From Eukaryota sp. GEM-RC1 (taxonomy: Eukaryota), in contig JAUFOQ010000001.1 of NCBI GenBank assembly GCA_040285855.1, positions 744,001 through 808,000 on the forward strand: a stretch of 64,000 nt of DNA, written 5' to 3'. Of the stretch, positions 21,186 through 64,000 are shown in pieces. Within the stretch, counting starts at the first letter, position 1; each line of letters opens with the position of its first letter. Under the pieces are notes generated by a model, which was not told where the DNA came from, searched no databases, and worked only from the letters and a program-made list of their open reading frames with translations. Made by a program: the position numbers and the translations under genes.

Positions 21186-21199
21186 ACAAAGATAATACT

Positions 21200-22883: not shown

Positions 22884-23102
22884 AACATTTCTTCACTTAA
22901 GCGATGCCACCTGCAAAATTTCCTTAAAAAAGCAGCAAAGACGAACAACCATCACTCAGTAAAAAAAACAAGTGAATTCGGTTTATAGACGACCGAAAAG
23001 CAAGGCTAGAGTTTGGGTATTTTTGAGCTTATCAACACATACTAACATCAGCATCGCAGTATTCAGCCTCTTTCCGAACCCCATCCAGCTCCACGCTATT
23101 CC

Positions 23103-23725
23103 ATGGAGTGGAGAAAGAAGGTCCAAGACATATCTGGAATTATTCGCACCTTTCAAAATCTGGAACTCACGGTCATAGAGAAGGACTTGGTAATCAGTTG
23201 CACAATAGCTTCTTACAATGGAGACTTTGTCGCTCGGTATGTCTCTACTGCAACAGGTGGAGGCCATAATGGCATGGTGAGCGAATACTACTTCGAGGCT
23301 GAAAACAAGAAGGAAGTCATGCAGAGAGCCTTCAAAAACTGTGATGCTTTTGAACACTTCTGGACCAAAACAAAAAGGGAGTTGGAAAATTTGGATAATT
23401 TAGGAACCACCCAATGCAACGGTCACAATCTACAAAGATGTTACGGATGTTCCACCTGATCTCCTACGTCTTAATAAGGTAAAGGGAGTTTACTACGTCG
23501 TTGTTTGCGGTAGCTTAGTTGGGCAAAATCACATCGACTGGCTGTTATTGCCAGCTACTGCAGAACGAACTGACACAACCACACTTCATGATGGCCTCAA
23601 ACAAAATGAAACTTATGATGTCGAAGACGAAAGACCATTTGCAGATTTTAGAACAATCTAAGACTCCGGTGATCTATCAGATGAATGGTGTAATGAGGAA
23701 TAGAAAGGCCTTTACAAGTGGGAAA
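23103..23725 (+). pseudogene. Frameshifted homologue of island ORF 40878-41570
   Basis: SCTIASYNGDFVA vs SCTVASYNGDYVA. A downstream frame gives KVKGVYYVVVCGSLVG..VEDERPF..KGLYKW, matching the C-terminus of the 41-kb protein. Confidence 0.65.
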
Positions 23726-25886: not shown

Positions 25887-26798
25887 TAGGGTTGTTAAAA
25901 TGAGCCGAGTCAAGTCGAGTCAAGCCTACAATTTGAAGCTTGACTTGACTCATGAGTCAACCAAGCCTGACTCGAGCTGACTCATCTTGATTACCTTTGA
26001 CTTGACTTGACTCATGAGTCAACCGAGCCTGACTCGAGCTGACTCATTTTGATTACCTTTGACTTGACTTGACTCATGAGTCAACCGAGCTTGACTCGAG
26101 CTGACTCATTTTGAATGCTCTTTTCTATTGTACTTTATAACATAACACAAATCTCTACTGTTTTCTACTGATCTGAATTTAATACACCTATTCCGTACCA
26201 CGAGTGTAAACACAATAAACACCTTGCAGTATTGCAGATAGTCTAGCCCTTTCCTTTGTTACAATTTGGTTTGCAGCAGAGAACAAACGTTCAATTGCTG
26301 CTGAACTTGGCCGAATGCTTAAGTAGTCGCGAGCTGAGCAAGCTGAGCTAGGATAATCTGATTGGTAGCGTTTCCACCAATCTAGGGGATCCACCGCAGC
26401 ATCGACTATGCCTGTTGATAAGTAAGCTGTCAGCTCATCCCACACATCAACATGCAATGAATTTATACAGAGAACTGCTACTAATTCCATGTACAGGTGA
26501 TTGTACTAGAATACGTTTAAATTGTACTAAATTACATTCATTAGAGTAAACTTGAGTAGAGCTGACTCACAGACAGAAACATAGGCTTGACTCGACTCAT
26601 GAGTCAAATGAGCCTGACTCGAGCTGACTCACGGACAAAGATATAGGCTTGACTCGACTCATGAGTCAAATGAGCCTGACTCGAGCTGACTCACGGACAA
26701 AGATACAGGCTTGACTCGACTAATGAGTCAAATGAGCCTGACTCGAGCTGACTGACTCAAAGCTCAGTGAGTCAGCTTGACTCAAAATTACAATCCTA
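25887..26798 (-). mobile_element. 912-bp non-autonomous hAT element with 62-bp subterminal arrays and 8-bp TSD
   Basis: Ends TAGGGTTG / CAATCCTA. TSD AATGAGGA at 25879-25886 and 26799-26806. Three 62-bp GACTCA-rich repeats at each end. Internal DPLDWWK..ARDYLSIRPSSAAIERLFS dimerisation domain (26188-26490). Confidence 0.92.
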
Positions 26799-26829
26799 AA
26801 TGAGGAAGACATTGCTTCCACTCTACGTT

Positions 26830-30919: not shown

Positions 30920-31255
30920 ATAGCCAACGAAATTTTTAACGAATTAACTTCAGCTGGATTCGCTGAAGAAACTGACCCGAACTGCCCCCACGGAAGCCCA
31001 ATCGTTTTAGTTACTTATAACGACGACAAAAAGCCAAGACTGACTGGTAATTACTCTGGCAACGATGCCATGTCCATCCAAGTAGAATCTAATTTTCCAA
31101 AGATTTCTGACATTTTAGAATTCTTAAGGTCTGCCGAATTCATCGTCACGCTAGACTTGCCACGAGCCTTCTGACAGTTAAAGATCGAAGATAAAGACTT
31201 CGATAAGACGACGCTGAAGATTCCTGGTAGAGCCATCAGGTTCACTAGAGCAGCA
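30920..31255 (+). mobile_element. Ty3/gypsy reverse-transcriptase fragment
   Basis: HGSPIVLV..KPRLTGNY..PKISDIL..TLDLPRAF*QLKI..DKTT. Confidence 0.75.
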
Positions 31256-31256
31256 A

Positions 31257-31765
31257 AACGATGATGACGAAGTTGAAATTGACGAAGAAATTGAGCAGAA
31301 GATTAGAGAATATGCTAATCTCCTGTATTCCGATCCAAAATCAATTGTTAATCAGGATTTTTTCAAGGATAATCAGCAAGCGATTCTTACCGAATGCCAA
31401 CATTTGCGTCCCCACTACTGCCGGTCAACGATGTATCTTTGTATTCAGCAGTAATGCTGACGAGAATGAGCCCTTAACACTCCATCTTTGCGAGCACCTT
31501 AATGGGCTTCAAGAACCCGTCATCCCTCATTCAAACTTCACCTCTCATTTATGTGAAGACTTCTGCCAATGCTAAGTTCCGAGACTATCAGGGTCAATTC
31601 AATATCTACATGGAGATAACCCGAAAGTCGACCCCTGAATGGAAGGCGACTTACATCAACAATCTTTGTTCTCCACTTGGTTACTTTCTCACATGATCTC
31701 CCTATTTCATTCCTGCAAACCATTGTATCATTGTATCAGCCTTTAGCCATGTAGAAGTTTTTTCC
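31257..31765 (+). pseudogene. Decayed inverted copy of the SF3-helicase-like island gene (42370-42890)
   Basis: High DNA identity; IYVKTSANAKFRDYQGQFNIYMEITRKSTPEWKATYINNLCSPLG. Confidence 0.85.
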
Positions 31766-32359
31766 TATCTGACTTTCAATTGCTTTCAGTACAGCTATGC
31801 GTCAGGTGTGTGTGTTACTGTGATATTGGAGAAATGTCAGAGAATTCATGGATGAACTCCTTTCCCCGTTCGAGGATCAACTCTCAATCAACAAACCAAC
31901 TCATGGTGAGCCCCTCCATGGATTGGATCTCGTAAGAGACCTCCTCTTAAATGTGGACATCCGCGGCTTACAACTGCATGTTGATCCAATGATCCTCACC
32001 TCCTGGAAGAATGATGGGACTATCCCCACATTTTTAAACAATTGGTACATCTGGGAACGTATCATCTTGAACACCCATGCCGAATCCCCTCGTCAAGGAG
32101 AAGCCTTGATCGTCAACTGTACCATGGACTGGTCAATGAACAGGAAGTTCAAGTCCAATCGGGAACGATGAAACGATTATCTACGTTTCACCAGAGTTGC
32201 TAACGCCTGCACTCTAATCCCCATCGACGAAAAGCATTCATACAGCTTTGACGTTCGGCTCATGATGAAACATTTCGCAAGGAACGTTGCAATCCCCATC
32301 GTTTTCCATGACGTCGAGTATTTTTTCAAGGACAAGGAAATATTCAAAGAATACACCTG

Positions 32360-32880
32360 AATATTATTAATCACATGAATTGTGGATTCAGAGGTCCCAC
32401 TTGATACAAAGAAGTTTCGTTGAAGTTCTGAGTGAAAGAACTTCCTTCTTCCACTGAATAGAACTACAAAAACACAGTAATAGCTAATGGAAAACAACAG
32501 TTCTTTCAGCTTGAATGCTTAAAATGAATTATTGAACATGAATTCTGCGTGCCAACTGAAATCCTTTTTTCTGTCGCATGACTATGTTTCTAGTTTAGTC
32601 GGTGTTGTAATGTTTTTTACGTGATGTATTGGTGTAACAATGTGTAGTATAGTTTTACTTTCAGTCTTTTAAATCCATAATACAACAGTTCATTCTTTCA
32701 ACAACTCATGTTGATTTCTACACGTCACAATCTTCTAAGAACAACTAGAACAGTACGAGAGTCCATCGAAAGACATATACAATATTGATCTCAAACTTTC
32801 TTCTTCTTATACAACAATTTCTAGCTCCCTTTAAACCACTCCGATGGTCTTTGGGGAAGACTAATCAGTTGTTCTATCAT
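32360..32880. repeat. ~520-bp non-coding segment, inverted duplicate of 38165-38665
   Basis: Long reverse-complement identity, e.g. gttgatttctacacgtcacaatctt vs aagattgtgacgtgtagaaatcaac. Confidence 0.85.
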
Positions 32881-33371
32881 GTCCTCTCTTCGCAGTAACG
32901 TAATTTCGATGGTGTGGAGCTCATCATTTTTGAATATTTTTACCAAATGAACAAAATTGATTTGTTCACATTACTCATACGTCTTAGGTTCGATTCTCTT
33001 CTATAGACTTGATTAGGATTAACACACCATTTGTACCCGACTTTCTGAGACTAATCATCTACCTTATGCTGGATTGAACCCAGGGGCTGCAGAATAGCTG
33101 CAGAATTCGGTTGAGGAACTGCAACAGCACAGTCAGCAGAATTGTCTTTCCAACGTTCATAACGTTCTTCGTTGAGCACAAATCGAGCGGAAACCAAATT
33201 GTCATGTCAATGAGTTGTGCCTAAAAACGCATTCAGTACTTCAAAATTTCGGACTAATTGCAATTCACCATCTGGTGTAAGGTATAATACCCACAGCCAT
33301 TCCTTTGTATAAGTTAAACGGAACAAATACTATAACTGCTTTGACCAAGAATCAAAGTTAGGAGCTCGTGT

Positions 33372-33495
33372 AGGTCACTCAGTTTTTAAGCAAGTGACCC
33401 CGAGGTCAAAACCAGTCAGTTTTTAAGCAAGTGACCCCGAGGTCAAGGCCAGTCAGATTTTAAGCAAGTGACCCCGAGGTCAAGGCCAGTGAAAT
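33372..33495. repeat. 37-bp tandem array of the GTGACC/GGTCA site (about 3 units)
   Basis: agtttttaagcaagtgaccccgaggtcaa repeated at 33381, 33418 and 33455. Confidence 0.9.
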
Positions 33496-33607
33496 CCTAC
33501 ATCCCTAAAAATGGTATAGTAAAAAGAATCACGTTTAATACATGAAGATCATTTTTTATAGATAACATTTTTTCTATACCAGACTACACGACTTCTATAA
33601 ATGTGAG

Positions 33608-34085
33608 TAGGGACGAGAAATCACCTGAAAAGTGAGTAAGGAATACTACTCGAGTATCTGAGTAGATTTATTGAGTAGTATTCGAGTATTACTCATCAAC
33701 AAAAATTTGTTTTAGACTTTCAAGCAAATAAACACACCACTTTAATGTTCTATTTGTAGTAGAAAAAACTATTCATCATATAATGAATCTCAGCTTTACC
33801 TCTAAACTCAAAATCGCTTGAACACACTAAAATTGATTAGACATTCGAATATAATGAAGTAAAATGAACAACAACTAATAATAACACTTGGACGTTAAGT
33901 AAACCGCTTTTGTTTATCGTATAAGACTACTATCGATTCAAACGATAGTTTCGTCTAATCAAAGACGGTAATTTAAGTAGGACTCGAGTATATACTCACT
34001 CTTCAGGAAAGTGTGTATGAATACTACTCGAGTAGTACTCGGTATACTCTACTCAAATACTCTACTTGAGTAGATTATTTCCCTA
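33608..34085. mobile_element. MITE-like insertion with TACTCGAGTA subterminal palindromes
   Basis: TAGGG...CCCTA ends; absent from the homologous position near 45700. No clear TSD. Confidence 0.55.
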
Positions 34086-37000
34086 TCTCTATAAGCAACT
34101 ACGTAGATTTCATATTGATACTGCTTCTACCAGCAGTTCTAGTTGTAGCGCTATAATCTCTTCTGATCAATCTTTTACTGTTCTTTATGATTATAATTAC
34201 ATATATTGCACTCAACGCTCATGCTCTGCAGTTTCAAGTTTGTCGTTTTTTCAAAAGTGACACTGTGTCTTTGAGATATAAATCTGTCCATAAATGTATG
34301 ACATCATCATAGGAACGTGTGAGGTCTGAAATTGATTGCCCTGATACAACAGTATCTATGTTATAATTGAAAACATCTTTCTCCTGGATGAAAGCCATGT
34401 GCAGGATGGGACTGTGAAACATTTGAAGATAAGGTCTTTTCTGTTGTAGTCCACGTACTATTTTGTTCTCCAGCAGTCTTAGTTGTCTTATCATAAAAAA
34501 ATCTAGGTGGTTTTTTCCTGGCTGTAATATAATCACGTCGTGATTTGGCACCCATTTGACAAACGGATAGAGAGATAGGGTTTGTAAGTTCTTCAGTCAG
34601 ACAAGTCTCAAAGGGACAAATCTCAAAAGGTATTGGTCGGAGTAGACGTAAAATGACTCTAAGGTCAAGGTCACAAAGAATAATTGAGTTATATGTTCCC
34701 GACTAGAAATATGTCACAAACTTAAAAATAACCAAGCAATGCACACTATAAGCTTCATATTACTGATGAACCAAGTATAATTAAAACTCAAATGGTTACA
34801 TAGTTCATTTTAAGAAATGGTAAAACTTAAAATTTGTAGGTCATATCAATTCTTCAATTAACTTCTTTCCGAATCACAACTTTATGGTTTAAAACTATCT
34901 TAAATAAGAAGAAGTAGATAAATAACTGCACTGGTACGTATAATGACCACATTTCACAGTGTTGTTTAACCAAATCTTTGATACAAGGGACACTCAAAAC
35001 CAGTCTGTAGTAAGTTGTGGAAAGCTGATAGTTGAGGAACTTAAGATTTGGAGTTATATCTGATGTTCTCATATAGTCTATATGTATTTTACATTTAGTC
35101 CGTATAGTAAAGAGAGAAATTTATCAGAATCTTAAGTTCTTGATATATCACCTTTGCATATGTATATAGAACTCATGTATCAGTATGTAAATGGTGAAAA
35201 ACACATGTTAGAGTGAAGAAAAGATGATTTTGATCAGTGACCCTAAGGTCCAGGTCATAACTCATACAGCTGAAACTTTTCATGTATATCACAATCAGCG
35301 TCTTCAACAATGTTAACGTCATTAAAATGAGCAGAAGTTGGGAGATGTGTATGCAAATGGTTAAGCAAGAAATATATATAACAAAATATATGAACCCAGT
35401 TTCTATTGTGATTTGTACTGTATTTTGTAGTTCTTTTCAGTGCAAGAAGGAATTTCTTCCACTCAGAACTTCACAGAGATTTTTACTCATAGGCAAAAAT
35501 CATAGTCAAAATTCTCACAAAAAAGTTGTTATTTTTTGGGTACAGTGAGAATTTTCACGAGCCTGGTGTAAAACTCCTCAATTAATATCTCAGCTAAATA
35601 CTGAAGAACAGTTAAATGACATATTTCGATAATGTATTGGTAAAAATAATTTCTCGCAGACTGCGTATTAGACTTAGAACAAAATATAAAACAAGATTGT
35701 TACTTTTAGTGTCTCTTCAAATTTTTCTCAGAATGCCAGACGATGGTCTTTGGGCGCGAAGATTATGTTGGTGATGCACCAAATACAGAGTTTTGGAGGC
35801 ATTGGTCTTAGAAAGAAGAGAAAGTGTGTGTTTTCACGTAGTATTTTTCAGGGTTATGTTGGACACCTGAAGAGCGGCAATGTTGAGATCCAGCTTCATC
35901 AGGGAGGAATGAGTTGCGGCTGGTCCACTTTTATTAGCGCTCTGGACTGGGAGAAGAGTTCGTGACATAGATGGGACGATATCAAAATCCGGTGAGAGTG
36001 CTGTATTGATGCCTTTTGTTTTCATCATTCTCCATAACTGTTTTTTGTGTCTCCAGAACACGCTGAAAATCTTCGAACGCTTGGATATTAATAGATAGTT
36101 GTAGTAATTCCATTATATACGTTTGGCGCATTGAGAGAAAATAGTGATGTCAAGAAGGTACACAACTGGACGACAACTCACGGTCATCCAGAGCGACTCA
36201 GTACTGATTAACAGACAAATAGTCCTTCATCGTTTTGAACATCACAATGTTCTTATAATTTAAATTTGAATTTACACCTTCTTCACATATATTCTATTTG
36301 GTATTTTTCATTTTTTGAGCATTTGTTATTGTTATTGAATCATCAGACGTGTTACTGATGATCAACATTCACTGGAGTTCTTGATAAGAATGATATAGAA
36401 AAATAGAGATTAATGTTTGGATTACATTCATTAAAATTGACTTATCAATACGGAACTCAAAAGGTAGACAAGCATAAAATAAAAATACTTAATTATATAT
36501 CATTTTGTGAGTTTAGTCATTTTAAATTATCAAGTATTCAGACTGTGGGCATTTCAGTAATCAGTAGAATAATTGAAGATGATGAAACTGATGACACATT
36601 GACAATAATCAAATGTGCCTTCTACCGTTTTTTTGAAAAAATACAGTCTGATAAGAAGAATAACTAACATTCAATATCCACACAAACGAACTTGTAATGT
36701 GATAAATGTATTACAAGAATGAGATCTCATCAAAAGAGGTTGTACTAAAACCTAGAATTATGTAGATGTAGTTTATATTGCAATCAGTAACTTACCAAAA
36801 CAACGTTATATAAGAAGAAGTGGTGATCTCTCGATGCATAACACTTACAGCCAATGTCAAGATCAAGAACCATTTGGAAGGTATATCCCACAAGAAGTTT
36901 TTGCGTGGGGAAGTTTGTGTAATAAAATCAATTTACTCCCAAATCCACTGAATTTGCACCACAGTGTAGTACAAGTACGAAGCAGCATTGCAAGTTTTTT

Positions 37001-38709
37001 CAGAAACAGAAAAAAGTGTATATTGAACTTGGTGTATGAAGAACTGGTTCTGATGATATATCTTCTTCTTTAGTTGACCGTTAGTTTGTTGTACAAAGAC
37101 ATTCATTTTAACTGATTTGTCCACCAATGATTTAACATCAATATCTAAACTAATAGAAAAATGTCCTGATATCAAAGCTTGTTGTATTATACTATTTTAC
37201 ATTAACCTTTGATAACTCTTAACCGAAATCTTCATCTTCTTTCTCATTGCTGTATTCACAATGTTCTTTACTGTGAACAATGTTATAGTGAATGGACTGT
37301 CATGTGTATAGACTTAGTAAGTGATTATATTCTAAATTTATAAAGTTCTTTTCGTCTATCAGTTTTGTATTGATTATATATATACATCTTATATATAGTT
37401 GTATTGAATGCATTACTGATTAAGAACATTTTACAAAGGTTTTAAACTGATTTTTATATAGTTAAGACTACTTCTTTTCAAATAGTTTTCAAAACAATGG
37501 AAATCGGAGGAGTAAGATTTTCGATGAGTAAGTTGTGCTATAGAACGGAAACCCTAATATTTGTTGTGATTTCTTAAGGCAGGATTCCGAAGATATAAAG
37601 AGAAGCTATGACAATTCAACAAACGCTGCTGACTTAGCAAACAACACAGATGCATTCAAAAACTTAATTAAATTCAACTGACTGTAATAAACAGAATTGG
37701 CCCTCAAAGATTGTTACAAATATGCAAGAATAGATTGAACAATTAAGAAAGACTGTATAACGGATGTAAAAAAAACAACGGACACTTTCTGGGGTCCTTT
37801 TAAAGAATTTTTGATTCATCCTTAGGAATTATTCTCATCCGCTCTCAAAGAAATCCTTCGGGTGATGATTATCATTAAACCCGTCTGCAAAATCATGAAG
37901 AGTATTAATCAGTTCTTGGGCTTCAATATCGGGTAACTCTATTCGAATGCGGTTTTCAATGAGGACTTGTTTATACTGGGTGGGCTAAACACTTATTAAT
38001 CATCAACACATGATGAAATCATTTTTACAGCACTGAGAATCGAACTCAGAACAAATGCGGCACGTGAGTAAATCCATTTTTTCAATTTGATTGATTCAAG
38101 AAACATGAGATTCACACCACGATTATGGTACTTCGAAGAAAGAACATGTCATAACAACTGGATGGCCTTCCTCAAAGACCATCGGAGTGGTTTAAAGTAA
38201 GCTAGAACTTGTGGTACAAGAGGAAGAAAGTTTGAGATCAATATTGTATATGTCTTTCGATGGACTCTCGTAATGTTCTAGTTGTTCTAAGAAGATTGTG
38301 ACGTGTAGAAATCAACATGAGTTGTTGAATGAAAGAACTGTATTATTATGGATCTAAAAGACTGAAAGTAAATCTATACAACACATTGTTACACCAATAC
38401 ATCACGTAGAAAACATTACAACACCAACTAAACTAGAAACATAGTCATGCGAAGGTAAAAAGGATTTCAGTTGGCACGCAGAATTCATGTTCAATAATTC
38501 AATTTTAGCATTCAAGCTGAAAGAACGCAAAACTTCTGTGTTGTTTTTTGTTAGCTATTGTTAGTTTTTGTAGTTCTATTCAGTGGAAGAAGGAATTTCT
38601 TCCACTCAGAACTTCAACAAAACTTCTTTGTATCAAGTGGACCTCTGAATCCACAATTCATTTTGTTTTAGCTGAAAGATATTCTATGACGTATTTATAC
38701 CGTCATATT

Positions 38710-39435
38710 CTAAATCGAGTAGAAAAATCGCAATTTCGTTTTTTCGCATCCACACTCTTGCGATTTGATGTGAGGAGAGAAGTCAAGCAGTGGAGGCAGA
38801 GATTGCAGTGGTTCGACATCTGACTGTTCGAATTCAATACAGAGTTCAGTGTCAGAACATTCTCCAGGATTACAATAAGTGTTGATCCTGGAAAGAAAAG
38901 ATTGTGAAGGTGAATGATGAATCACCCAGGTACAAGTAATACCATCAGAATTGGCCTTCTGTCTTTGGCCTTTGGCCTTTGCAGCAGGTAGCGATTTGCG
39001 TGGCGGTGCAACAATGGGAGGAGATCTAGGACGAGGAAATAGATCTGTGACTTCGGGGCAAGCAGTTACCAATCCGGAGAATGCTCCAACAGGTGGGAGA
39101 ACATCTCTAAGAACATCGTGACCTGATGCAGGTACGTTAGTGTACCGATGTACAGAGCGGCCATCCATAGTCACTGCTGTGAATGAGAATGAGGTGAACT
39201 TGTCAATACCCTGCTGTGACAGTTCATCGATCAGCGAAGTGATCACCACGTTTTTGTCCTTTCGGACCTGCTTATAATCTTTCTTCGACCCATCGTGATA
39301 GGGAATCCCATCACTGGGTCTGAAAGTCTTTGTGGGGAGGTTTGAAGTTAACCTTTTCCACAAATGGACGAGAAGGAGTGAGTTCTTCGTCAGACATGAG
39401 AGAAAGAAAAGCTTGAATGAACACGTGTACCTCAT
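38710..39435 (-). CDS. Island orphan protein (5' end uncertain)
   Basis: 241-aa ORF; conserved homologue at 20.8-21.2 kb and a C-terminal (YSI*) homologue at ~61690. Confidence 0.6.
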   Translation of the reverse strand: MRYTCSFKLFFLSCLTKNSLLLVHLWKRLTSNLPTKTFRPSDGIPYHDGSKKDYKQVRKDKNVVITSLIDELSQQGIDKFTSFSFTAVTMDGRSVHRYTNVPASGHDVLRDVLPPVGAFSGLVTACPEVTDLFPRPRSPPIVAPPRKSLPAAKAKGQRQKANSDGITCTWVIHHSPSQSFLSRINTYCNPGECSDTELCIEFEQSDVEPLQSLPPLLDFSPHIKSQECGCEKTKLRFFYSI

Positions 39436-40064
39436 CTTTTCACTTTTCAGTGTATTGGACGCAGGCCATTGGTTCCCGTATGGCCACTAAACCTGTAGGA
39501 ATGATTGAACATGTACAGCATAAAACATTAAGGAATATTTGAACAAGTTGTCATGTCAAATTTAGAGACCTTTACCTTTGGGTTACAACAAAAACTCTCC
39601 AAAATCGTGTTTGTACACACTTAAACATACCAGGATGTCGTTTAGTACAACAAGGATTGATATACAAGCAGAGATTGTGACTCTGAAAACGCAATATAAC
39701 TCTAAATATGTCAAAGAGGGAGGAATTTGAACGCCTACTCAACATGTTGTGTGCCATGTCTATACTCTATAATGTATATTGCAAAATAAAATATTCTGCT
39801 TACAGATTTTTTTTCATATGTAATGTTGGTTTTCAAAAATTGAAACCCCAAACACAAAACAACCTTAACCATATACATGTAGTCACTTATTCCACCTATA
39901 GAACTGAACTTGGTCCAACATGAGTTTTGTTAAATATGTCTATTTCTCAACGCAAACTGTGACCATTATCAATGATACCCATAACAACTGAGATAAAATA
40001 TATACAAATGTATAGTACAAAACAAGAAATAAATACCAAACTAATGCAAAATAAGCAAGAAAAA

Positions 40065-40616
40065 CTAGCTAAGGAGGATAATCCGTGAAAACATATCAGC
40101 TAGAGCATTTGGAAGAAATGTGGGCTTACTCACATGAGGTAAATATCGATCGTGATCAGAGAGTTGTTGGATTATCCACTTTATAGCCAACATATAAGTC
40201 TTTTGATAACAACAAATAAATCCGTTGCGTTCAGAAGAAAAAGAATGATGAAGAAGAGATGATTGTTCAAAAGACTTGGAATATATGATACCATACTCTT
40301 GAGGATTGTCCAAAGCAACAAAACTAAGAAAAGGACTAAAGATTGGAGCATTTTGAACCATAGAATCACGTTGTGTCAAAGTTGACTTCGGTTGTTGACT
40401 GAGACGTTTTGACAGCCAGGAAGTCGCAGAAATATGTGTTTTATGCGTAGAGATAACGAAAGAATGAGGAAGACGTTCTTTTGCAGCATCGAAACGATGA
40501 GAGAATGTCGTGAATATGAAGCTATCACAACTACACCGAAAGTGCAGACAAGCGAACTGGAAGTGAAAGCTAGATACTGTGGATAAGTACGAACATCCAT
40601 GGAAAGGAAGAAACAA
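40065..40616 (-). CDS. Island orphan protein, possibly two divergent RNase H1-N/Cauli_VI-like domains
   Basis: Homologue at 22347-22883; two ~50-aa units ending in A..W[LI]. The domain call is speculative. Confidence 0.55.
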   Translation of the reverse strand: MFLPFHGCSYLSTVSSFHFQFACLHFRCSCDSFIFTTFSHRFDAAKERLPHSFVISTHKTHISATSWLSKRLSQQPKSTLTQRDSMVQNAPIFSPFLSFVALDNPQEYGIIYSKSFEQSSLLHHSFSSERNGFICCYQKTYMLAIKWIIQQLSDHDRYLPHVSKPTFLPNALADMFSRIILLS

Positions 40617-40877
40617 AACAAAAAACAGAAGAGGAGTTAACAGAGATTTTTTTTCCTTAACCCAATGACAAATAACTCAAACCAAGAGCCCAGTAAGAAA
40701 CAATGCAGAAAGTCTACCAGAACAACAGTAACTACACGGGATGTTGTTGTGCGCAGACCAGAAAGTACTCAGACATTAGAGTTTGCTTAATATATTCATT
40801 AATTAAAGTCAAAGGTTTTAAATTCCGCCACAGAACCGAAGAAATATGGCAGATTCAGTCCACTGTGGAAGAGTAAA

Positions 40878-41570
40878 GTGACCGAGCTGAACTCCATTGA
40901 GAAGGCAATGCAAGTGCTGCACCGCAGGGCAGCTGAACGAGAGTGGAGTGTCAGCTGTACCGTAGCATCCTACAACGGTGATTACGTTGCAAATGCAGTC
41001 TCCACTCCAGTTAATGTTGGGCCAGTGGTCATGCAGAATGCTGTTTTTACGGAACACTTCTTTGACACAGAAACTAAAGACCACTTACTTGACAGGGCAT
41101 TCGATGACCCTGATTCTCTAAAACGCTTATGGAAGGCAACTTCCGCTAAAGTGCAAAATCCATCTGGGATTGACCCTTCCATTGCAGAACCCTCCGCTGA
41201 CCACTTAGAAAATGCTTCCATTACAGAACCCTCCGCAGACCACTTAGTAAATGAAGCTGAAGCTAATCATTTAGCAGCGAAACTAAAGAAATTGCCCACT
41301 ACTAAGGTTGTCCTGATCAAAGTAGACGACGTTTGGCGTCCTGCTGTCAATGGTAGCTATGTCGGTTATCATATGGACGAGTATGTTATGCTCCCAAGTT
41401 CATATGAGCTAACAGTACAAGAGGCAGGAATTAAACCACCAACGCTAATTGAAGAACACAAGGTTGAGGACACAAAACCGTGGACCGACTTGCATGAAGT
41501 TGAACTTGCAGGAACACTTCATTATCAGTGGATGAACAACAAGTGGAGAGGTATATATAACTTTCAATAA
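40878..41570 (+). CDS. Island orphan protein (frame open back to ~40803; probable upstream exon)
   Basis: 230-aa ORF with internal duplicate SIxEPSADHL; homologue at 23103-23725. Confidence 0.65.
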   Translation: MTELNSIEKAMQVLHRRAAEREWSVSCTVASYNGDYVANAVSTPVNVGPVVMQNAVFTEHFFDTETKDHLLDRAFDDPDSLKRLWKATSAKVQNPSGIDPSIAEPSADHLENASITEPSADHLVNEAEANHLAAKLKKLPTTKVVLIKVDDVWRPAVNGSYVGYHMDEYVMLPSSYELTVQEAGIKPPTLIEEHKVEDTKPWTDLHEVELAGTLHYQWMNNKWRGIYNFQ

Positions 41571-41583
41571 ATTATTCAAATTT

Positions 41584-42996
41584 TTATTCTGAACCATCAA
41601 CAAAGAATTCATTATAATATTCGTCGATATGTGAGCTGACAAAAATATCTCTATGGGAACAGATTGCTCCTACTTCAGCCAGAAGCAGTTTAGACTGTGA
41701 AAATGCAGTAGGTATATCTGTTAAAATATAACCAACTTCAGGAATCTGAGCATTAAAATCAGGTAAGGCGCCAATTCCTTCTTCAAGATATTTTCCTAAG
41801 AAATCTTTCATTTCTTGGTTGCATTGAACGAAGGTTTTAAGCTGATTAAACTGGTGAACCGGAGACAACCTTGCCACAGTTTCATTGAGCATGTTTTTAC
41901 GCTTGTTGATAAAAAACGTGAACCACTTATGACTCATAGATGTACCCGACTTACGCATAGCTGTAGCGAAAGCAATAGGTGCCTGATAGGTACACATATG
42001 AGCTAGAAGCACATATTTTTGACCATGATGTACATGATCGATGGTGTTTGCGTAAACATGAACGCCCAAAGAGCTCACATCATGTTCACATGATTCGTAC
42101 ACCGATGACAAGTGCTCCACAGTGTCATATATTGATTTAAATAGATCAATTTTGGCAACTTGATCACTTGCCGTCAGTACTGATAAGAAAGTATTAGGAT
42201 GCACTACTGACGGAGAGTTAGTATCCTCAATTTCGCTCAATAGCGTTCGGGCCAAATTTTTAATGGGAGTAATACTCCACAGATCATTGACGTTAGGAAG
42301 TTTAAGTCATATGTCCACATGTCTGATATCAGAATAAGCCTGCATGTTGGTCTTTTTTTGCCCACTTGAAAAAACTTCTCCATGGCTAAAGGCTGATACG
42401 ATGATTACTCTTAAATGGTTTGCAGGAAGAAAATAGGGAGGGCATGTGAGAAAGCAACCAAGTGGAGAGCAAAGATTGTTGATGTAAGTGGCCTTCCATT
42501 CAGGGATCGACTTTCGGGTTATCTCCATGTAGATATTGTGTTGACCCTGATAGCCTCGGAATTTAGCATCGGCAGAAGTCTTGACATAAATGTTCGGTGT
42601 AGTTCGAATAAGAGATGACGGATTTTTGAAACCCATTAAAGCGCTCGCAAAGATGCGTTGAAGTGTTAGTGGCTCATTTTCGTCGGCATGACTGTTATAG
42701 ACAAAGATACATCGTGGACCGGCAGTGGTACGGGGACGCAAATGTTGGCATTCGGATATAATCGCTTGCCGATTATCCTTGAAAAAATCTTGTTTGACAA
42801 TTGTTTTTGGATTGGTATACAGGAGAGTCGCATATTCTCTAATCTTCTTCGCAAGTTCTTCGTCGATTTCAACTTCGTCATCGTCGTCTTGTTGGCGTAC
42901 TTGTTTTCTGACACGAGAAGAACGTGTCGAGCGACGGACAGCATTGGTACTAGACAGTTGGACCTCAGGTACATCAGAACTAGGCTGTTCGGACAT
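41584..42996 (-). CDS. Degenerate CRESS-Rep-like SF3 helicase-domain protein; a single in-frame TGA at 42307-42309 separates two co-linear ORFs
   Basis: IYVKTSADAKFRGYQGQHNIYMEI..YINNLCSP..RVIIVSA aligns by eye to circovirus Rep YWK..KWWDGYHGEEVVVIDD..LLRLCDRYP..ILITSN. ORFs 42307-42996 and 41584-42255 are in the same frame with only one stop between them. Confidence 0.6.
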
Positions 42997-43352
42997 GAGA
43001 AAGAGATGATAAAAGAAATTTCACTGAAAGGGTATAGAGAAAAAAAATCACGCTTAACCCTTAAGGATGATTTTTTAACGTTAACACTTTTTCTCTACCA
43101 GACTACACGCCACATGATCGTGATCATACATGTGCATCCAGATGACTGTTAGTCGTTGTTTGCTCTTACAACTCACCAGTTGTTTACTTATAATTTGATA
43201 GTTTTCCCTTGTTGAACCAGAAATGTTAGCGAATAAATTTCTTCCTTAACCATTTGCATACACATCTGCCCACTTCTGATCATTTTAATGATGTTGGCAT
43301 TGTTGAGGACGCTGATTCTGAGATACATGAAAAGTTTCAGCTGTATGTGTTA

Positions 43353-45155
43353 TGACCTTGACCTCAGGGTCACTCAACAAAATCATCGTTTCTTCACTCT
43401 AACATGTGTTTTTCACCATTTACATACTTATACATGAGTTCTATATACATATGCAAAAGGTGATATATCAAGAACTTAAGATTCTGATAAATTTCTCTCT
43501 TTACTATACAGACTAAATGTAAAATACATATAGACTATATGAGAACATCAGATATAACTCCAAATCTTAAGTTCCTGAACTATCAGCTTTCAACAACTTG
43601 CTACAGACTATTTTTGGGTGTTCCTTGTATCAAAGATTTGGTCTAACAACACTGTGAAAAGTGGTCATTTGAGCTGCAAATACGTACCAGTGCAGTTATT
43701 TATCTACTTCTTCTTATTTGGGTGGAATATAAACCACCAATTTGTGATTCGGAAAAAAGTTAATTGAAGAATTGATATGATCTACAAATTTGAAATTTTA
43801 CAATTTCTTAAAGTGAACTATGTAACCATTTGAGTTTTAATTATACTTGGTTCATCAGCAATAGGACGCTAATAGTGTGCATTGCTTGGTTATTTTTAAG
43901 TGTGTGACATATTTCTATTCAGGAACATATAACTCATATATTCTTTGTGACCTTGACCTCAGGGTCACTCAACAAAATCATCGTTTCTTCACTCTAACAT
44001 GTGTTTTTCACCATTTACATACTTATACATGAGTTCTATATACATATGCAAAAGGTGATATATCAAGAACTTAAGATTCTGATAAATTTCTCTCTTTACT
44101 ATACAGACTAAATGTAAAATACATATAGACTATATGAGAACATCAGATATAACTCCAAATCTTAAGTTCCTGAACTATCAGCTTTCAACAACTTGCTACA
44201 GACTATTTTTGGGTGTTCCTTGTATCAAAGATTTGGTCTAACAACACTGTGAAAAGTGGTCATTTGAGCTGCAAATACGTACCAGTGCAGTTATTTATCT
44301 ACTTCTTCTTATTTGGGTGGAATATAAACCACCAATTTGTGATTCGGAAAAAAGTTAATTGAAGAATTGATATGATCTACAAATTTGAAATTTTACAATT
44401 TCTTAAAGTGAACTATGTAACCATTTGAGTTTTAATTATACTTGGTTCATCAGCAATAGGACGCTAATAGTGTGCATTGCTTGGTTATTTTAAGTGTGTG
44501 ACATATTTCTATTCAGGAACATATAACTCATATATTCTTTGTGACCTTGACCTCAGGGTCACTCAACAAAATCATCGTTTCTTCACTCTAACATGTGTTT
44601 TTCACCATTTACATACTTATACATGAGTTCTATATACATATGCAAAAGGTGATATATCAAGAACTTAAGATTCTGATAAATTTCTCTCTTTACTATACAG
44701 ACTAAATGTAAAATACATATAGACTATATGAGAACATCAGATATCACTCCAAATCTTAAGTTCCTGAACTATCAGCTTTCAACAACTTACTACAGACTAT
44801 TTTTGGGTGTTCCTTGTATCAAAGATTTGGTCTAACAACACTGTGAAAAGTGGTCATTTGAGCTGCAAATACGTACCAGTGCAGTTATTTATCTACTTCT
44901 TCTTATTTGGGTGGAATATAAACCACAAATTTGTGATTCGGAAAAAGTTAATTGAAGAATTGATATGATCTACAAATTTGAAATTTTACAATTTCTTAAA
45001 GTGAACTATGTAACCATTTGAGTTTTAATTATACTTGGTTCATCAGCAATAGGACGCTAATAGTGTGCATTGCTTGGTTATTTTTAAGTGTGTGACATAT
45101 TTCTATTCAGGAACATATAACTCATTTATTCTTTGTGACCTTGACCTCAGGGTCA
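43353..45155. repeat. Three tandem ~595-bp near-identical non-coding units delimited by four TGACCTTGACCTCAGGGTCA sites
   Basis: Sites start at 43353, 43948, 44542 and 45136 (periods 595, 594, 594). Confidence 0.95.
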
Positions 45156-45812
45156 TTTGACTTCCACTTCTAACCAATACCCTTTGAGACTTGTCCCTTT
45201 GAGACTTGTCTGGCTGAAGAACTTACAAACCTTATCTCTCTATCCCATTGTTAAATGGGTGCCAAATCCCGACGTGGTTATCTTACAGCCGGTAAAAAAC
45301 CACGTAGACTGTTTATGATAAGACAACTAAGACTGCTGGAGAACAAAATAGTACGTGGACTACAACGTGAAAGACCTTATCTTCAAATGTTTCACAGTCC
45401 CATACTACACATGTCTTTCATTCAAGAGGAAGATGTTTTCAATTATAACTGTTGTACCAGGGCAATCGATTTCAGACCTCACACGTTCCTCTGATCATGC
45501 CATACATTTAGACACATTGTCACATTTGGAAAAAAAGACAAACTTGAAACTGCAGAGCATGAGCGTTGAGTGCAATATATGTAATTATAATCATAAAGAA
45601 CAGTAAAAGATTGATCAGAAGAGATTATATGGCTACAACAACTAAAACTGCTAGAAGTATCAGTATCATTATAAAATCTATGTACAAGGTAGTTGCTTTC
45701 ATACTGAAGTCATGTAGTCCGGTAAAGACAAAGTGTTATCGATAAAAAATCATCTTCAACTGTTAAGCGTGATTTATTTTCACTATACCATTTTTAGGGA
45801 GATATGATTTTA

Positions 45813-46030
45813 CTGGCCTTGACCTCCGGGTCACTTAACTGAGTGGCCTTGACCTCCGGGTCACTTACTTTAAAAATGAGTGACCTTGACCTCCGGGTCA
45901 CTTACTTTAAAAATGAGTGACCTTGACCTCCGGGTCACTTACTTTAAAAATGAGTGACCTTGACCTCCGGGTCACTTACTTCCAAAATGAGTGACCTTGA
46001 CCTCCGGGTCACTTACTTTAAAAATGAGTA
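45813..46030. repeat. 37-bp tandem array of imperfect palindromic (lox-like) sites, 5 full units plus 1 partial
   Basis: gtgaccttgacctccgggtcacttactttaaaaatga at 45843, 45880, 45917, 45954 and 45991; shortened unit at 45813. Confidence 0.95.
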
Positions 46031-46060
46031 AATCCCTAAAATTTATTAGATTTAAAACAT

Positions 46061-46893
46061 TCAACAATTAAACGCCTGTTCAATTCCAGTAAAATCACCC
46101 ATGTCACGCGCAGCTTCAGCTATACCTTCTCCAATATAGGTAAGAGTTGTGGTACCACTCAAATGACTTAACATTTTCTTCAACGTATCCAAACGTGCTG
46201 GTTTTTCATGAGCCGGGCCACCAAATTGCCAGTAATGGTATGCAAATGTTTTCCTCATAGTATGAGTCGAAAATTTCTTCAGTCTTAACGATCTACCAAC
46301 TTCTTTGAAAACTCTAATAACAGTTTTAACACACAGAGGCTGTCGGCAGCCTAACTTCTTTTTCTCGAGTAGAATAAATAATCATTCGGAGCGACATTTG
46401 CTGCATCACAATACTCTTGCACTACAACTTTAAGCCAAAGGGAGACTTTACGGGTGACTGTAGCATTTACCCAATGTTTTGATTTTCGTTTCTTCTTTTC
46501 TTTTATAATTAAGAATGTTGCAGTTATACTGTTCTCTTTAAAATCTTTTAATCGTAACGTCAACAAATCAGAAATTCTGAGACCAAGAGCACATCCAATT
46601 TTCCAAATAGCACCATTTCGCTTTCCATTTATTCCAGGTGTCAACGCAAGAAATTCATTGTATATAACGTCAATCATATTGGGATCTTTGATTGGAGACA
46701 TTCCCTTGTGCAACTGTTCGATGCTAATATCCAAAGTACCATGATAGTTTTCATTTTGGGCTAATGAATAAGCTTGATCATCATCACAATCAGAGAAAAA
46801 AACACATTCGTCAGATGATGTTTCATCGGCATCTGATTCAATTTCAGACATGGGAATGGGATGAGGATAGGCAAAAGGGTCGTTAGAGGACAT
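46061..46893 (-). CDS. Tyrosine recombinase (phage-integrase family), one -1 frameshift in an A5 run at ~46360
   Basis: GLRISDLLTL (R), IKEKK (K), STHTMRKTFAYH (HxxR), MLSH..TTLTYIG (H, Y). Adding one A joins YLFYSR to KKKLGCRQPL..FSTHTMRK. Confidence 0.9.
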
Positions 46894-46917
46894 TGTGAGA
46901 TGATGTATGAAAAGTAA

Positions 46918-46961
46918 AATCTGAATGTGAACTTTGTTATAACAAAGTTCACATTCAGATT
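46918..46961. promoter_or_regulatory. Perfect 44-bp palindrome between divergent YR and orphan genes
   Basis: aatctgaatgtgaactttgtta|taacaaagttcacattcagatt is seen directly; its function is inferred. Confidence 0.7.
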
Positions 46962-46992
46962 CCTTCCAACTCCAACTTTTTCACAACCCTAT

Positions 46993-48159
46993 ATGAAACA
47001 TGTTAGAAAAGAAGCTATGATTAGGAAGAAGGCTCATGATAGGCACATTGTCACCACAATTAACACTTTGAGGAAGAGTGTTGTCCTCATGAAAGAAAAC
47101 TGTCCTTATGAACATGACGTTCATAGTTGCATTGGACTAGCTGATGGGTCTCTACGTCAGATAATAGGTGTGCCATTTAACCCTTGCCGGGCAACAGTGA
47201 GTGTGTATTCTTGGTATGATCCCCAATCATTGAAGTTTGCTGAAAAAAAATACCATTTCCCATCATGGATTTTGGAAAATGATATGGATGATGGTGAGCC
47301 AATCATTTTAAAAATATTGCACGATGATCTGTTCGGCCTAAGTACCCGAACGTGGCTTTTCTACTCTTTGCTGGTCGAATCTGCAGCCAACTTGACCCAT
47401 TACATTGCCTGTAATGTTCGTTGTGTAACTGCTGTGGCTGTCGATCTCCCTGCCGCACGCCAATTCCCCCCAGCCGTGAAAAAGAAACTGGACGATCACC
47501 AAAAGCCAAGCAGGGCATCACTGTATGAACTAAACCTAGCCCGCTCAAAGAAATTGGCTCTGAAGCGAAGCTGTTTCAGCCGGAACAGCAGTGTGAGCGA
47601 ATGTGATGTCAAGTTCTCTTACAGCACTGAGCATCCATGGAGTGACACTGAAGAGTGTGGATGCGATTTCCAATGGACGAACCTGGATGGGGAACTCGGT
47701 TGGATCAAAACTCAATGGAATGTGCTCACAACACAGGCTCCGAACTTTGATTCTTGGTCAAAGCAGTTGTTGTATTTGTTCCGTTTAACTTATACAATGG
47801 AATGGCTGTGGGTATTATACCTTACAGCAGATGGTGAATTGCAGTTCTTCCCAAATTTTGAGGAACTGAATGCGTTTTTGGGCACAACTCATTGCCAAGA
47901 CAATTTGGTTTCGGCTCGATTTGTGCTCAACCAACAACTTTATGAACGTTGGAAAGACCCTTCTGCTGACTCTGCTCCTGCAGTTCCTCAAACGAATTCT
48001 GCAGATATCATTCGTACTGGCTATGAAGAACCTCTTGAAGAAACAATATTGATTGAAGAGCCAGAATCCCAACAGGAGTTTAAAACTCAGACTGTAACAT
48101 TTACAGGAAGAAGTTTATTCAAAAAGAAGAAAAAGACGATAAATAAATTCAGTGTTTAA
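46993..48159 (+). CDS. Island orphan protein (~388 aa), divergent from YR
   Basis: Long uninterrupted ORF, first ATG at 46993; decayed homologue at 33060-33371. Confidence 0.75.
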   Translation: MKHVRKEAMIRKKAHDRHIVTTINTLRKSVVLMKENCPYEHDVHSCIGLADGSLRQIIGVPFNPCRATVSVYSWYDPQSLKFAEKKYHFPSWILENDMDDGEPIILKILHDDLFGLSTRTWLFYSLLVESAANLTHYIACNVRCVTAVAVDLPAARQFPPAVKKKLDDHQKPSRASLYELNLARSKKLALKRSCFSRNSSVSECDVKFSYSTEHPWSDTEECGCDFQWTNLDGELGWIKTQWNVLTTQAPNFDSWSKQLLYLFRLTYTMEWLWVLYLTADGELQFFPNFEELNAFLGTTHCQDNLVSARFVLNQQLYERWKDPSADSAPAVPQTNSADIIRTGYEEPLEETILIEEPESQQEFKTQTVTFTGRSLFKKKKKTINKFSV

Positions 48160-48222: not shown

Positions 48223-50231
48223 TTATTCTTTGTCTTCAGGCTTTATGAATTCGATTACTGTGGCCATAAACGACCCCTTAAAAGTTTTTTCATCTACTGC
48301 CACATACATTAAAGAAGGATCCCAACAGCTGCCTTTGATATTGAATGTTTCAACACATTCTTTGTGAGCTAAAATATTGGCAAAACACGTGGAAAGAGAA
48401 TTTAAGTCAGAGTCCGGATTCTCTCTACCTACAACAGAATACTGAGGGATTTCTTTAGATCTGTCAAGCACAGCTAAAATTAGAGGCAAATCTTGTTTGT
48501 CGAAACTTACAGCTCGATGAGAATACCAGGACTGAAGAAAGTGAGCGAGATAAAGTAAATTGAAAGGAAGAGTAAAATCTAATTCAGAAGGAATGCATTC
48601 AAAAATAAAAAGACGAAAGAATTGAGTTAGTTGTGCCAATTTTTCATTTAAGATTCTACGGGCAATCTTTGATATCTCTGTGATACTGGCAATAGTATCA
48701 TCGAGATAAGTTTTAAATTGATCCTCATCAGGAACTTTGAACAATTTTGAAACCAGAGAGAATGTGGAAAGCTTTTGTCTTTTATATTGATCCTCATAAG
48801 GAACTTTGAACATCTTTGAATCCAGAATGGATGTGGACAGATTTTCCCTTTTCCATTCATTTGAGCATGTAATAGAACATGTACAACATCAGAAGACGAA
48901 ATGGGAAATCTACCAGAACGTTTAAGAAAGAATTCTGAATGTGTGAAGTTTGGCAAAGAGAAAATTTTTACAGACTCAGGCCAGAAGTTGTCAAAGTTGG
49001 ATCGTTGATCTTCGGTCATATGAATAAAAAGAGTGTCATAGCTGAGTAGAGTGACACCAATTTTAGCCAACATGGTAGCCACAAGGGTTCTTCCAGTATC
49101 TTTATGGAGAGCCAATTTAGCAGCAAATAGAGGAGTATTTTCGAGAGCAGTTTTTAAGGAGCAAAAGGACAAGAAGTTGAATACGTAGTGTTGACTTGAG
49201 TTTGTTTTACTACAAATAGCAAATTGGGGGTCTGGAGTACGGCCTTGATCGCGTTCATCAATAATCCACTGCTGATGTTCTCTATCAGTAGTGTCAAATA
49301 ATTTTGTAATTCTGAAAAATAATAATCCCAATCAACCTGAGGGCAACGATTTAAGATTTGATGCTCCCTAGTTCCAAGAGCAGCAGCCCAAACTTCAACA
49401 GGAGTCTTCCTTTCAGAAAGGTACTTACATAAAAGCAGCGAAGTAGGTGTTCCAAATGACATTGGCAGTTCATAATAAGTTTGAACAAATCCAGCTTTCA
49501 AAAAACATCGATGATGGGTAAGCAACCGCACACGGATACCGTTTTCTTGTTCAATATAGACTTTTGGTAATCTCGGACGTTTTGCGGGAGGCGGCTGAAG
49601 TGGACAATCAGAATCAGATGGAGCATTAAGTGCGGCATCAAAGTTGTCTTTAGCTGGATCATAAAATTGATACAGCTCAGAAACATGCTGTGGAATATAA
49701 TAAAACTCTTCCAGGTCAGACTCTGCATCAGTAGTATCCTCTGAAGTAAGGGACAGCTTACGAGTCAGCTCATTAATTTGATTCTCAATTGAAAATTGAT
49801 CATCATCAACAATGATGATTTGTTTTTCTTCCTTCACATTGATTAGATTCACAGGACGATTGGAATCAAGAACGATCATCTTGACTTGAGGATGCGGTTT
49901 CAGCAGCTGGCGCAACCTCAATCCTCCTCCACAGTTGACAAAAATACTGTCTGCAGCCACGGACCTCCACATTCTGGGTTGCATTGAATTCTGAAATGAC
50001 GCAGAATATCTTCAGTTGAGGCAACAGAGACAACAACAAATTGAATACCGTCTGAGTGAAGTCTTTTCTGAAGTAAGACACTATGTTACGATAACATACT
50101 TCGAGAATGGAAGATGCACATAATGAATCAACACCAGGTGCAACCAAAATCAAGACAGAAATTGCATTCACATGGTGTGTGTTCTTGATCTGTTCATAGA
50201 TGAAGGGAATACGTTCGCTCTGGATCAACAT
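48223..50231 (-). CDS. CDC45: Cdc45 replication-initiation/CMG helicase subunit, full length; one 32-nt intron and three apparent single-base frameshifts
   Basis: VLILVAPGVDSLCASSIL, VNCGG, VLDSNRPVNLINV, IIIVDD, VWAAALGT, SLKTALENT..LAKIG, SSSDVV, F..PFNLLYL..LPLILA..SVVG: Cdc45 motifs in the correct order from N- to C-terminus. Confidence 0.9.
50068..50099 (-). other. 32-nt spliceosomal intron in CDC45
   Basis: GTATGTTATCGTAACATAGTGTCTTACTTCAG. Removal gives ILE-KRLHSDGIQFVVVSV, matching the Cdc45 consensus. Confidence 0.8.
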
Positions 50232-50243
50232 GGTGAAAGAATA

Positions 50244-50253
50244 TTCCGCCAAA
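50244..50253 (-). promoter_or_regulatory. E2F-like binding motif TTTGGCGGAA in the 72-bp CDC45/E2F bidirectional intergenic region
   Basis: Matches WTTSSCSS, 12 nt upstream of the CDC45 ATG. CCGCC motifs also precede other genes here, so specificity is uncertain. Confidence 0.45.
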
Positions 50254-50303
50254 AAGATTGACTATTATCACAAGCCTGAAACTTGCACGTTTTCAATTTC
50301 CTG

Positions 50304-54477: not shown

Positions 54478-54555
54478 GTAGAAAAGAAAAGTGAACGAAA
54501 TGAACTAATTTGTTATATTGAATCATGAGAAAAGGAAATTCAGTTGCCTTACACC

Positions 54556-54951
54556 ATGTCCATCCCAATCTTTGATAAGCTACTGGATGAGTTTCGATCT
54601 GTGACAAACAAAACAGGTGATGTATTCAAAATTGTTTATGACCGGAACGGTGGAGCTTCATGGTTTGTTGGACTGCCTGACATTGAGGGTGTGGATCGTA
54701 CGACTGCCCCAATACAGGTATACTTCCAATACGTCATTAACCAACATTTAATCCCTGCTCTTGAATCGAATGATGTCGAATCTTTCCCTGGTGCTGTGTA
54801 CCTTCTGCACTTTTTGGCCAATTCAAATTCTGAATTGGCAAAGAATTCTGAAAAGAACATTACAGGCCATGTAATGGGTAAAGTTGGCGGAGAATACGAC
54901 AAGCAAACGGTAAAAGAGCGACGTTCGGATACTTATTATACATCTGAGTAG
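54556..54951 (+). CDS. Island orphan protein (~131 aa)
   Basis: Open frame with ATG, divergent from the 54477 gene, protein-like composition. Confidence 0.5.
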   Translation: MSIPIFDKLLDEFRSVTNKTGDVFKIVYDRNGGASWFVGLPDIEGVDRTTAPIQVYFQYVINQHLIPALESNDVESFPGAVYLLHFLANSNSELAKNSEKNITGHVMGKVGGEYDKQTVKERRSDTYYTSE

Positions 54952-59410: not shown

Positions 59411-60139
59411 ATTTTGAATAAATGTTTTTATTGTTTCTATTTTTGAAATATATTTGATTTCACCATATCTTTTGTTGATGTTGTTTATATACAACTTATA
59501 CGCAACTACCGAGATGTTGTTTACATACAACTTCGCATCTCTGTAGATGTTGTTTATAGAGAACTAGGTTGAAGTTCTGAATGGATAAAATCCTTCATCC
59601 ATCGAACAGAACTACAAGAAGATGAATTGAACAAAACAAACACATAAGCGAAGTCTGGAATTTGAGTTACCACATTGAAAATTTGAAGGGCAATTCAGCG
59701 TGTCATTTTTCCTTCTTCGAATTCGAATTTCTGTCTCTTCCTTTCAAAATAACGCAGTGTTTACAGCAGTGAACTTGCTCATTCTGTTTTGTTAACCATA
59801 CACTGTGTGGTATTGCAAATAGTACTTCGCCACAGTTGCCATTGGAATGTCTTTAGAAAATCAGAAGAATCGAGGTTACGTTGCTTACCAGAAAACATGA
59901 AATTGGGAATTTGCATTACAGTGGATTACGGTAATCTGACGTAAAGAGAAACAATTGAAGTGAATGTGACCACTGGCGGTATTAAAACTTTAAGTCTATC
60001 CGTTTTTGTGAGATCACGACTCTTTATGTTTGCTCTCACTAAACTGTTTGTATTACAATTTTGCAATAAACGAATGGACTGTAAAGAAGTATCAAATTTT
60101 TAGGTATGATTCACGATTCTAAATTTCTGATTTTCTGCC

Positions 60140-63640: not shown

Positions 63641-64000
63641 TACACCAAAACTTCATAGAATGTTTCTTGTGGAATTTGTTTCTCTTTTCGGTTTAAAATA
63701 CTCGAAATCAAGTACTGAAGAGATATAAGAATAAATGATAAATACAATCTTCTTGATAAAATACTCTCATTTTGTTTGAATCATTGACCATTGAATTAGA
63801 CACGGGGTCAAATTTTAGACCTAATTGAGGTATGGTTGCAGGGAAGAACACGATGATCGCACTTAAGCTGACAACCAGAAGGACTGGACAGATTGTTGAT
63901 TCAGTTAAACATGTATAACGGGATCATGGGCACGTGTATCTCGGCATAGATTTTGTGCTGACCGTGATACCAACCAGAACGAGTGATAGTTGGATCAGCC

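Follow-up and report, generated by a model that had tools for sequence, protein, structure and literature searches.

Tandem triplication of a 595-bp non-coding unit at 20-bp dyad sites in a putative decayed mobile element of Eukaryota sp. GEM-RC1

Results

Gene content of the locus

We analyzed a window of 64,000 nucleotides from contig JAUFOQ010000001.1 of Eukaryota sp. GEM-RC1 (GCA_040285855.1). Its gene content is eukaryotic and includes CDC45, an E2F-type winged helix, a RING-kinase-LRR protein and an ARM-repeat protein; the compactness of the genes suggests a protist. The CDC45 homologue (48223-50261), which may be a gene or a pseudogene, is spread over four frames; it has an internal 69-bp duplication and, close to its start, a likely 32-nt GT-AG intron. 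We considered using it as a gauge of indel errors and rejected the idea, since introns and frameshifts are inseparable there. Farther to the right, an exact 23-bp direct repeat (54992/56516) encloses 1.5 kb of ORF fragments, and an ORF beside this repeat (54529-54951) has a stretch in common with the ORF at 46993, read there on the antisense strand.

The left part of the locus holds five predicted ORFs with no assigned function (38710-42996). Four of the five have diverged paralogues beside fragments of a protein-primed DNA polymerase B (pPolB); these fragments and the ORF paralogues lie at 20768-23724 and 61907-64000, and segmental duplicates in the window span 17.3-21.6 kb and 60.1-62.3 kb. 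An 81-bp block on the minus strand (43027-43107), an inverted copy of 45713-45793 that may be promoter-like, precedes the ORF starting at 42996 by about 30 nt. To the right of this block come the repeated units described below, a spacer on the plus strand (45156-45712) with a possible decayed reading frame at about 45170-45450 (S10/N14 in the best frame, a weak signal), and the second 81-bp block (45713-45793, plus strand), which is 85% complementary to the first. An array with a 37-bp period follows (45795-46038, plus strand), with six CC-spacer sites (45814-46011) between TAGGGA and TCCCTA.

Next to the array, on the minus strand, lies a gene for a small catalytic-domain tyrosine recombinase (YR) of the phrog_216 type (46061-46893), the sole copy in the window. 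Aligned to a small-YR profile of 196 positions, the protein shows no large insertion, and its closest matches are small phage-type integrases with 28 to 43% identity. A single frameshift in an A-run near 46370 splits the gene, with the catalytic motifs (R-K-HxxR-H-Y) kept; an assembly error at that position is conceivable. The YR gene and a divergent orphan ORF on the plus strand (46993-48159; 388 amino acids, no homologue found) are separated by a perfect 44-bp palindrome (46918-46961). This palindrome may act as an operator, mark a hairpin-end junction or be the scar of a repair event.

The YR, the 46993 ORF and the 42307 ORF each formed a single-member cluster. Apart from the window's own protein, homologue searches found no match for the N-terminal half of the YR (longer proteins only), for the 46993 ORF or for the 42307 ORF. 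An Atlas search gave no usable match, the C-terminal half of the YR had no match in the PDB, and no YR-related locus was confirmed in viral contigs. Fold prediction was uninformative for the 42307 ORF (pLDDT 34). Neither a capsid nor a packaging ATPase was matched in Pfam or PHROG, libraries that miss divergent capsids. Judged from its sequence, the region appears to be a decayed mobile element of the pPolB family.

Three near-identical units between four identical sites

The sequence TGACCTTGACCTCAGGGTCA occurs four times without a mismatch on the plus strand, with starts at 43353, 43948, 44542 and 45136 and distances of 595, 594 and 594 bp from one to the next. Each is a 20-bp dyad, TGACCT-TGACCTCA-GGGTCA. 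S1 (43353-43372) and S4 (45136-45155) are the leftmost and rightmost outer sites, and S2 (43948-43967) and S3 (44542-44561) are junction copies of hybrid type, flanked on the left as S4 is and on the right as S1 is. Between them lie unit 1 (43373-43947), unit 2 (43968-44541) and unit 3 (44562-45135), all on the plus strand. A reading made from the sequence alone had described four sites delimiting three near-identical, AT-rich, non-coding units, and the exact 20-mers and their spacing bear this out. The frequency of the site is far above chance: allowing at most one mismatch, a 12-mer of it occurs 14 times against 0.35 expected, and none of 100 shuffles reached 14. The identity of S1 and S4 ends exactly at the edge of the 20-mer; the dyad is flanked by different bases in S1 (A-TGACC...GGTCA-C) and S4 (G-TGACC...GGTCA-T).

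Units 1 and 2 differ by one homopolymer indel and nothing else. Unit 3 departs from both by four substitutions and one homopolymer indel (0.7% divergence); three of these four substitutions match the base of a sister copy of the locus found elsewhere in the window.

In that sister copy, which lies on the minus strand, the same blocks are present (31251-35377 versus 38035-48008) in the order C-D-A-B rather than A-B-C-D, with deletions, and retroelement-like fragments lie beside it. The sequence-only reading had it as one unit between the same sites. There is indeed one unit (34654-35257, sites included), but it measures 584 bp from site to site and its two sites, at 35257 and 34673, are degenerate: TGACCTGGACCTTAGGGTCA and TGACCTTGACCTTAGAGTCA agree with each other at 18 of 20 positions, and each agrees with the main site at 18 of 20. 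The sister also has a 37-bp array (33372-33490, minus strand), here without a YR gene; it is cut directly after a TGACCT half-site and fused to the interior of a homologue of the 46993 ORF. Other repeats were also seen in the window. A MITE-like insertion with TAGGGA ends and TACTCGAGTA repeats (33608-34085) is found in the sister copy only. A 52-bp imperfect hairpin occurs in four or five dispersed copies (38566-38618, 32421-32479, 35423-35473, 59568-59620 and, weakly, 10443-10503), and at 3 of its 18 predicted pairs one sequence has a double change.

The two-base spacer at the center of the dyad is CA in the main units, CC in the main array, TA in the sister units and CG in the sister array, and it is uniform within each of these four site classes. 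A difference in core between the unit sites and the array next to the YR gene had been noted before and is confirmed (CA versus CC).

The units as likely passenger DNA

Stop codons interrupt the unit in all six frames, no clear synonymous excess was seen, and a Pfam scan of two frames gave no match. Two weak Rfam matches (E≤1) were obtained in 30-50 kb, none of them inside a unit. We found no sub-repeats within the unit above the level of shuffled sequences that would point to an ancient internal repetition. Homology of the unit to the spacer right of S4 was borderline in one scoring and absent in two others and in nhmmer, and we discarded it.

A 135-bp imperfect hairpin is present in each unit (43456-43590, 44051-44185 and 44645-44779). 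Folded as DNA it has z scores of -5.5/-5.3, in a window chosen around the hairpin, and the sister counterpart has -3.8/-2.7; RNA folding of the whole unit gave z of -1.9 and -3.0. Divergence from the sister is 6.7% in the unit and 10.3% in the flanks (p = 0.01 before control for base composition), and this apparent extra conservation vanished once G/C and A/T positions were separated (p = 0.26 and 0.47). The coding, Rfam and conservation tests thus gave no sign of selection on the unit. The suggestion that the unit could be an amplifiable origin, an enhancer or a noncoding RNA found its sole hint in the 135-bp hairpin, with no Rfam match and no extra conservation. The unit is likely passenger DNA.

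Probable duplication between direct repeats

The account of the three units that we favor is a recent tandem triplication by replication slippage or unequal exchange at the 20-bp direct repeats, for which the YR is unnecessary. We give this reading a probability of roughly 55%. An exchange between S1 and S4 would first have produced two units, and a second exchange, now within 595 bp of homology, would have produced three. The unit junctions fall inside the 20-mer. In the single-unit state, no exact direct repeat in 42.3-46.1 kb is longer than the S1/S4 pair. Elsewhere, with arrays excluded, one other exact repeat of at least 18 bp with copies 100 to 2000 bp apart was listed (23 bp, 54992/56516). 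Unit 3 branched off first from the ancestor of units 1 and 2. Neither of these two is a hybrid with unit 3. This confines the second crossover to about 214 of the 595 bp, the site included, and counts toward the YR reading considered below. The sister, whose sites are 18/20 alike, shows no expansion, and other tandem duplications in the window, hAT arrays among them, have no YR nearby.

It has been described that tandem repeats can arise when a segment between short direct repeats is duplicated (PMC3389668, in the portion consulted). In the Haber-Louis type cited there, n units likewise come with n+1 repeats and expand later on long homology. The usual repeats are 5 to 10 bp, whereas the 20-bp dyad found here is longer and more structured and is also arrayed beside a YR gene. 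Counting against duplication, homology-driven events were rare in Chlamydomonas mutation lines, according to the excerpted text of PMC9977147.

The sequence-only reading had proposed that copy number changes by recombination at the sites, in an integron-like way or by unequal exchange. Its first part agrees with the junctions inside the site, and of the two routes unequal exchange is the one we favor.

Could the assembly have produced the repeats? The triplication, or the pair of units 1 and 2 alone, might be an artefact, for instance if alleles were falsely duplicated. The separation of units 1 and 2 by one homopolymer indel fits such an origin, and it is on this pair that most of the suspicion falls. 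Unit 3 is another matter, since random error would not give it the sister base at three of four substitutions. This pattern argues for two real duplications, probably with a first event, then divergence and then the second event. The length of the contig, 3.98 Mb, suggests long reads, and a 20-bp repeat is below the usual assembly word sizes, all of which makes an artefact quite doubtful.

A possible role for the tyrosine recombinase

Site-specific recombination would leave the same junctions as duplication driven by homology, so the junctions by themselves fit both. In the site-specific alternative, the 20-mer would be the core of a YR site and the unit would have been inserted as a circle (attP × attB), leaving S1 and S4 as attL and attR. 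The YR would have amplified it later, by excision and re-integration or by sister-chromatid exchange, with the spacer setting which partners are compatible. We consider this alternative unlikely, though it would explain several features of the locus.

The first is the geometry of the array. Four of the six array sites beside the YR stop codon are 13-8-13 dyads with 10 of 13 arm positions matching (background, 4.5 × 10^-4 per position), and a 34-bp site of this loxP-like build fits the 37-bp period. YR sites have arms of 11 to 13 bp and spacers of 6 to 8 bp, as stated in the excerpts of PMC3212892. The sites that flank the units do not share these arms: they match at 8, 8, 8 and 5 of 13 positions, and the sister sites at 8, 4, 6, 6 and 5. 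Moreover, the spacer of the site itself repeats the half-site, as it does in the hAT motif described below.

Given the bases that flank S1 and S4, both the empty site and the junction come out symmetric, as expected of attL/attR hybrids, at one position and with a chance of about 1/16; the sister repeats the same ancestral flank state and is not independent support. For the spacer change that the two sister sites have in common, p is about 0.05, or 0.0045 for that position alone, but repeated unequal exchange could also homogenize spacers. If the YR acted here, the spacer variants may represent incompatible site classes. The truncation of the sister array begins right after the left half-site, at the edge between arm and spacer, and the block order C-D-A-B is as expected from a circle or a tandem dimer.

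The YR is otherwise complete, with its catalytic motifs retained, but it is broken in the assembly and no paralogue was listed. The one phage relative that we examined (L091) has no such array, and the motif is found in 90 loci without a YR. Each of the signals for YR use is post hoc and weak. In its fullest form, the proposal is that a phage-type YR in a pPolB-family element inserts, excises and amplifies a hairpin-bearing 595-bp module through lox-like sites, with a two-base spacer sorting the classes; on the sequence at hand, we would call this distinctly unlikely. The literature searched contained no description of a site-specific copy-number switch of this kind in protist elements.

The integron comparison fared worse. 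Neither half of the YR matched the IntI profile TIGR02249 at E≤0.01. An attC is a 57- to 141-bp palindrome between RYYYAAC and GTTRRRY in the excerpted text of PMC3053210; our 20-bp sites have neither of these cores, and 63-nt folds yield stems of only 5 to 9 bp. With no IntI, no GTTRRRY, no hairpin of attC size and no gene in the unit, the idea of integron-like cassettes was not sustained.

Shared geometry with a hAT element and recurrence of the motif in dispersed repeats

We scanned all 64 kb without bias for a pentamer followed by a second copy of itself, 4 nt and an inverted copy. Only two families emerged, TGACC (the present sites) and TGACT (an array at the end of a hAT element), while shuffled sequences gave 0 to 1. 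The latter belongs to a non-autonomous hAT (25887-26799) with TAGG ends, an 8-bp target site duplication (TSD) AATGAGGA and a fragment of the hAT dimerisation domain; it has 62-bp tandem arrays at both ends and no YR. When the 37-mer was compared with the 62-mer array on the left, a single shuffle in 300 scored as well, and the other three comparisons gave 7 to 36 of 300. As for terminal inverted repeats of the YAGNG type, TAGGGA at 45795 (plus) and 46038 (minus) flanks the 37-bp array only, with S1-S4 outside. No 8-bp TSD was found at the ends of that array, where ACCATTTT and AAATTTAT match at 4 of 8 positions. We dropped two other candidate element ends, a piggyBac-like one at 43246 that lacks a partner and a hAT-like one at 46991 whose 14/16 match is near chance.

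According to the part of PMC10368747 consulted, hAT transposases bind short subterminal repeats, some of them quasi-palindromic. Such repeats, both the Hermes BED-domain sites of that source and those of the hAT at 25887-26799, resemble our motif in having TGAC[C/T] twice plus an inverted copy, and also in their one-way orientation and their tandem arrays near TAGG-type ends. Unlike hAT repeats, S1 and S4 are single and 595 bp apart, and neither a TSD nor a matched left end was found.

Outside this genome, the TGACCTTGACCTNNGGGTCA motif was found in 90 metagenome loci (L001-L090) that represent 65 distinct contexts and in which each of the eight allowed spacers occurs. These loci comprise several unrelated families of interspersed repeats in which the two-base spacer is free. 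A GACA-type microsatellite lies downstream of the motif in 24 of the 65 contexts and upstream in 1. No profile-detectable YR was present in any of the 90 loci. In 596 Gb of prokaryote genomes the motif was hit six times, and in no case did a YR lie within 2 kb. Viral contigs contained no full site and 15 half patterns, none of which completes the dyad or sits near a YR, and a literature search with the motif string gave nothing related by title among the matches listed. The motif thus recurs in metagenome loci and prokaryote genomes with no YR detected nearby, and it does not mark YR systems in general.

The metagenome loci suggested another origin for the repeats. Several of the interspersed repeats that carry the motif look by eye like Helentron-type non-autonomous elements (HINEs; L020, L025, L032 and L034), and HINEs hold central tandem repeats, as the excerpts of PMC4067079 and PMC7492417 describe. 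If the region were a HINE, its central repeats could have been amplified by rolling-circle replication. But the GACA microsatellite (GTCY/GACA) is absent from 43.0-46.1 kb, as is a 3' hairpin with a matching subterminal repeat, and no Rep/helicase appears in the ORFs scanned. A blastn comparison of the region with the 90 loci gave no match longer than 30 bp. Even among the motif loci, a strict HINE test was passed by only 3 of 65, one of them trivially. For want of subterminal inverted repeats with a 3' stem-loop and of the microsatellite, we rejected HINE identity for the region and consider amplification of this type very unlikely.

The 20-mer is likely a protein-binding dyad that is repeated in the element. 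As to the protein that would bind it, the YR and a hAT-type transposase have about even claims.

Discussion

Besides tandem duplication and hAT repeats, three known kinds of system invite comparison with this locus. In protists, pPolB and a YR are frequent components of Polinton-like elements, as the excerpted text of PMC10120064 has it. With these and other pPolB endogenous elements of that source, our region shares a YR and orphan ORFs whose paralogues adjoin pPolB fragments, and also its place in a compact eukaryotic genome and its many frameshifts. It is unlike the Polinton-like elements described in those excerpts in that a capsid, a packaging ATPase and long terminal inverted repeats were not found and this copy has no pPolB. 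The motifs of the region are possibly hAT-like, or the region may be the remnant of a Polinton-like element with a lox-like site. Integrons (IntI/attI/attC; PMC3053210, as excerpted) are similar in that a YR gene lies beside repeated sites that bound discrete segments. In contrast to what those excerpts describe for integrons, the site here is 20 bp rather than 57 to 141 bp, and the units are free of genes and identical rather than diverse. Cryptons, as described in parts of PMC3212892 and PMC9977147, are eukaryotic YR elements with a possible circular intermediate and short direct repeats, in all of which our locus resembles them. Unlike the Cryptons of those accounts, it has a YR that resembles small Firmicutes phage integrases (phrog_216), and its sites are 20 bp and internal, not 4 to 6 bp and terminal; its element ends are not definable.

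Under the reading we favor, homology-driven duplication, the finding is of little import: it is a neat case of duplication between short direct repeats in decaying mobile DNA. The TGAC[C/T] geometry common to the site, the local hAT and unrelated repeats calls for caution, as shape alone is no proof of a recombination site. If, on the other hand, the YR reading is true, the 20-mer would be a candidate target site for the small phage-type YRs of protist endogenous elements, and the locus would be an instance of site-specific cassette amplification in a eukaryote.
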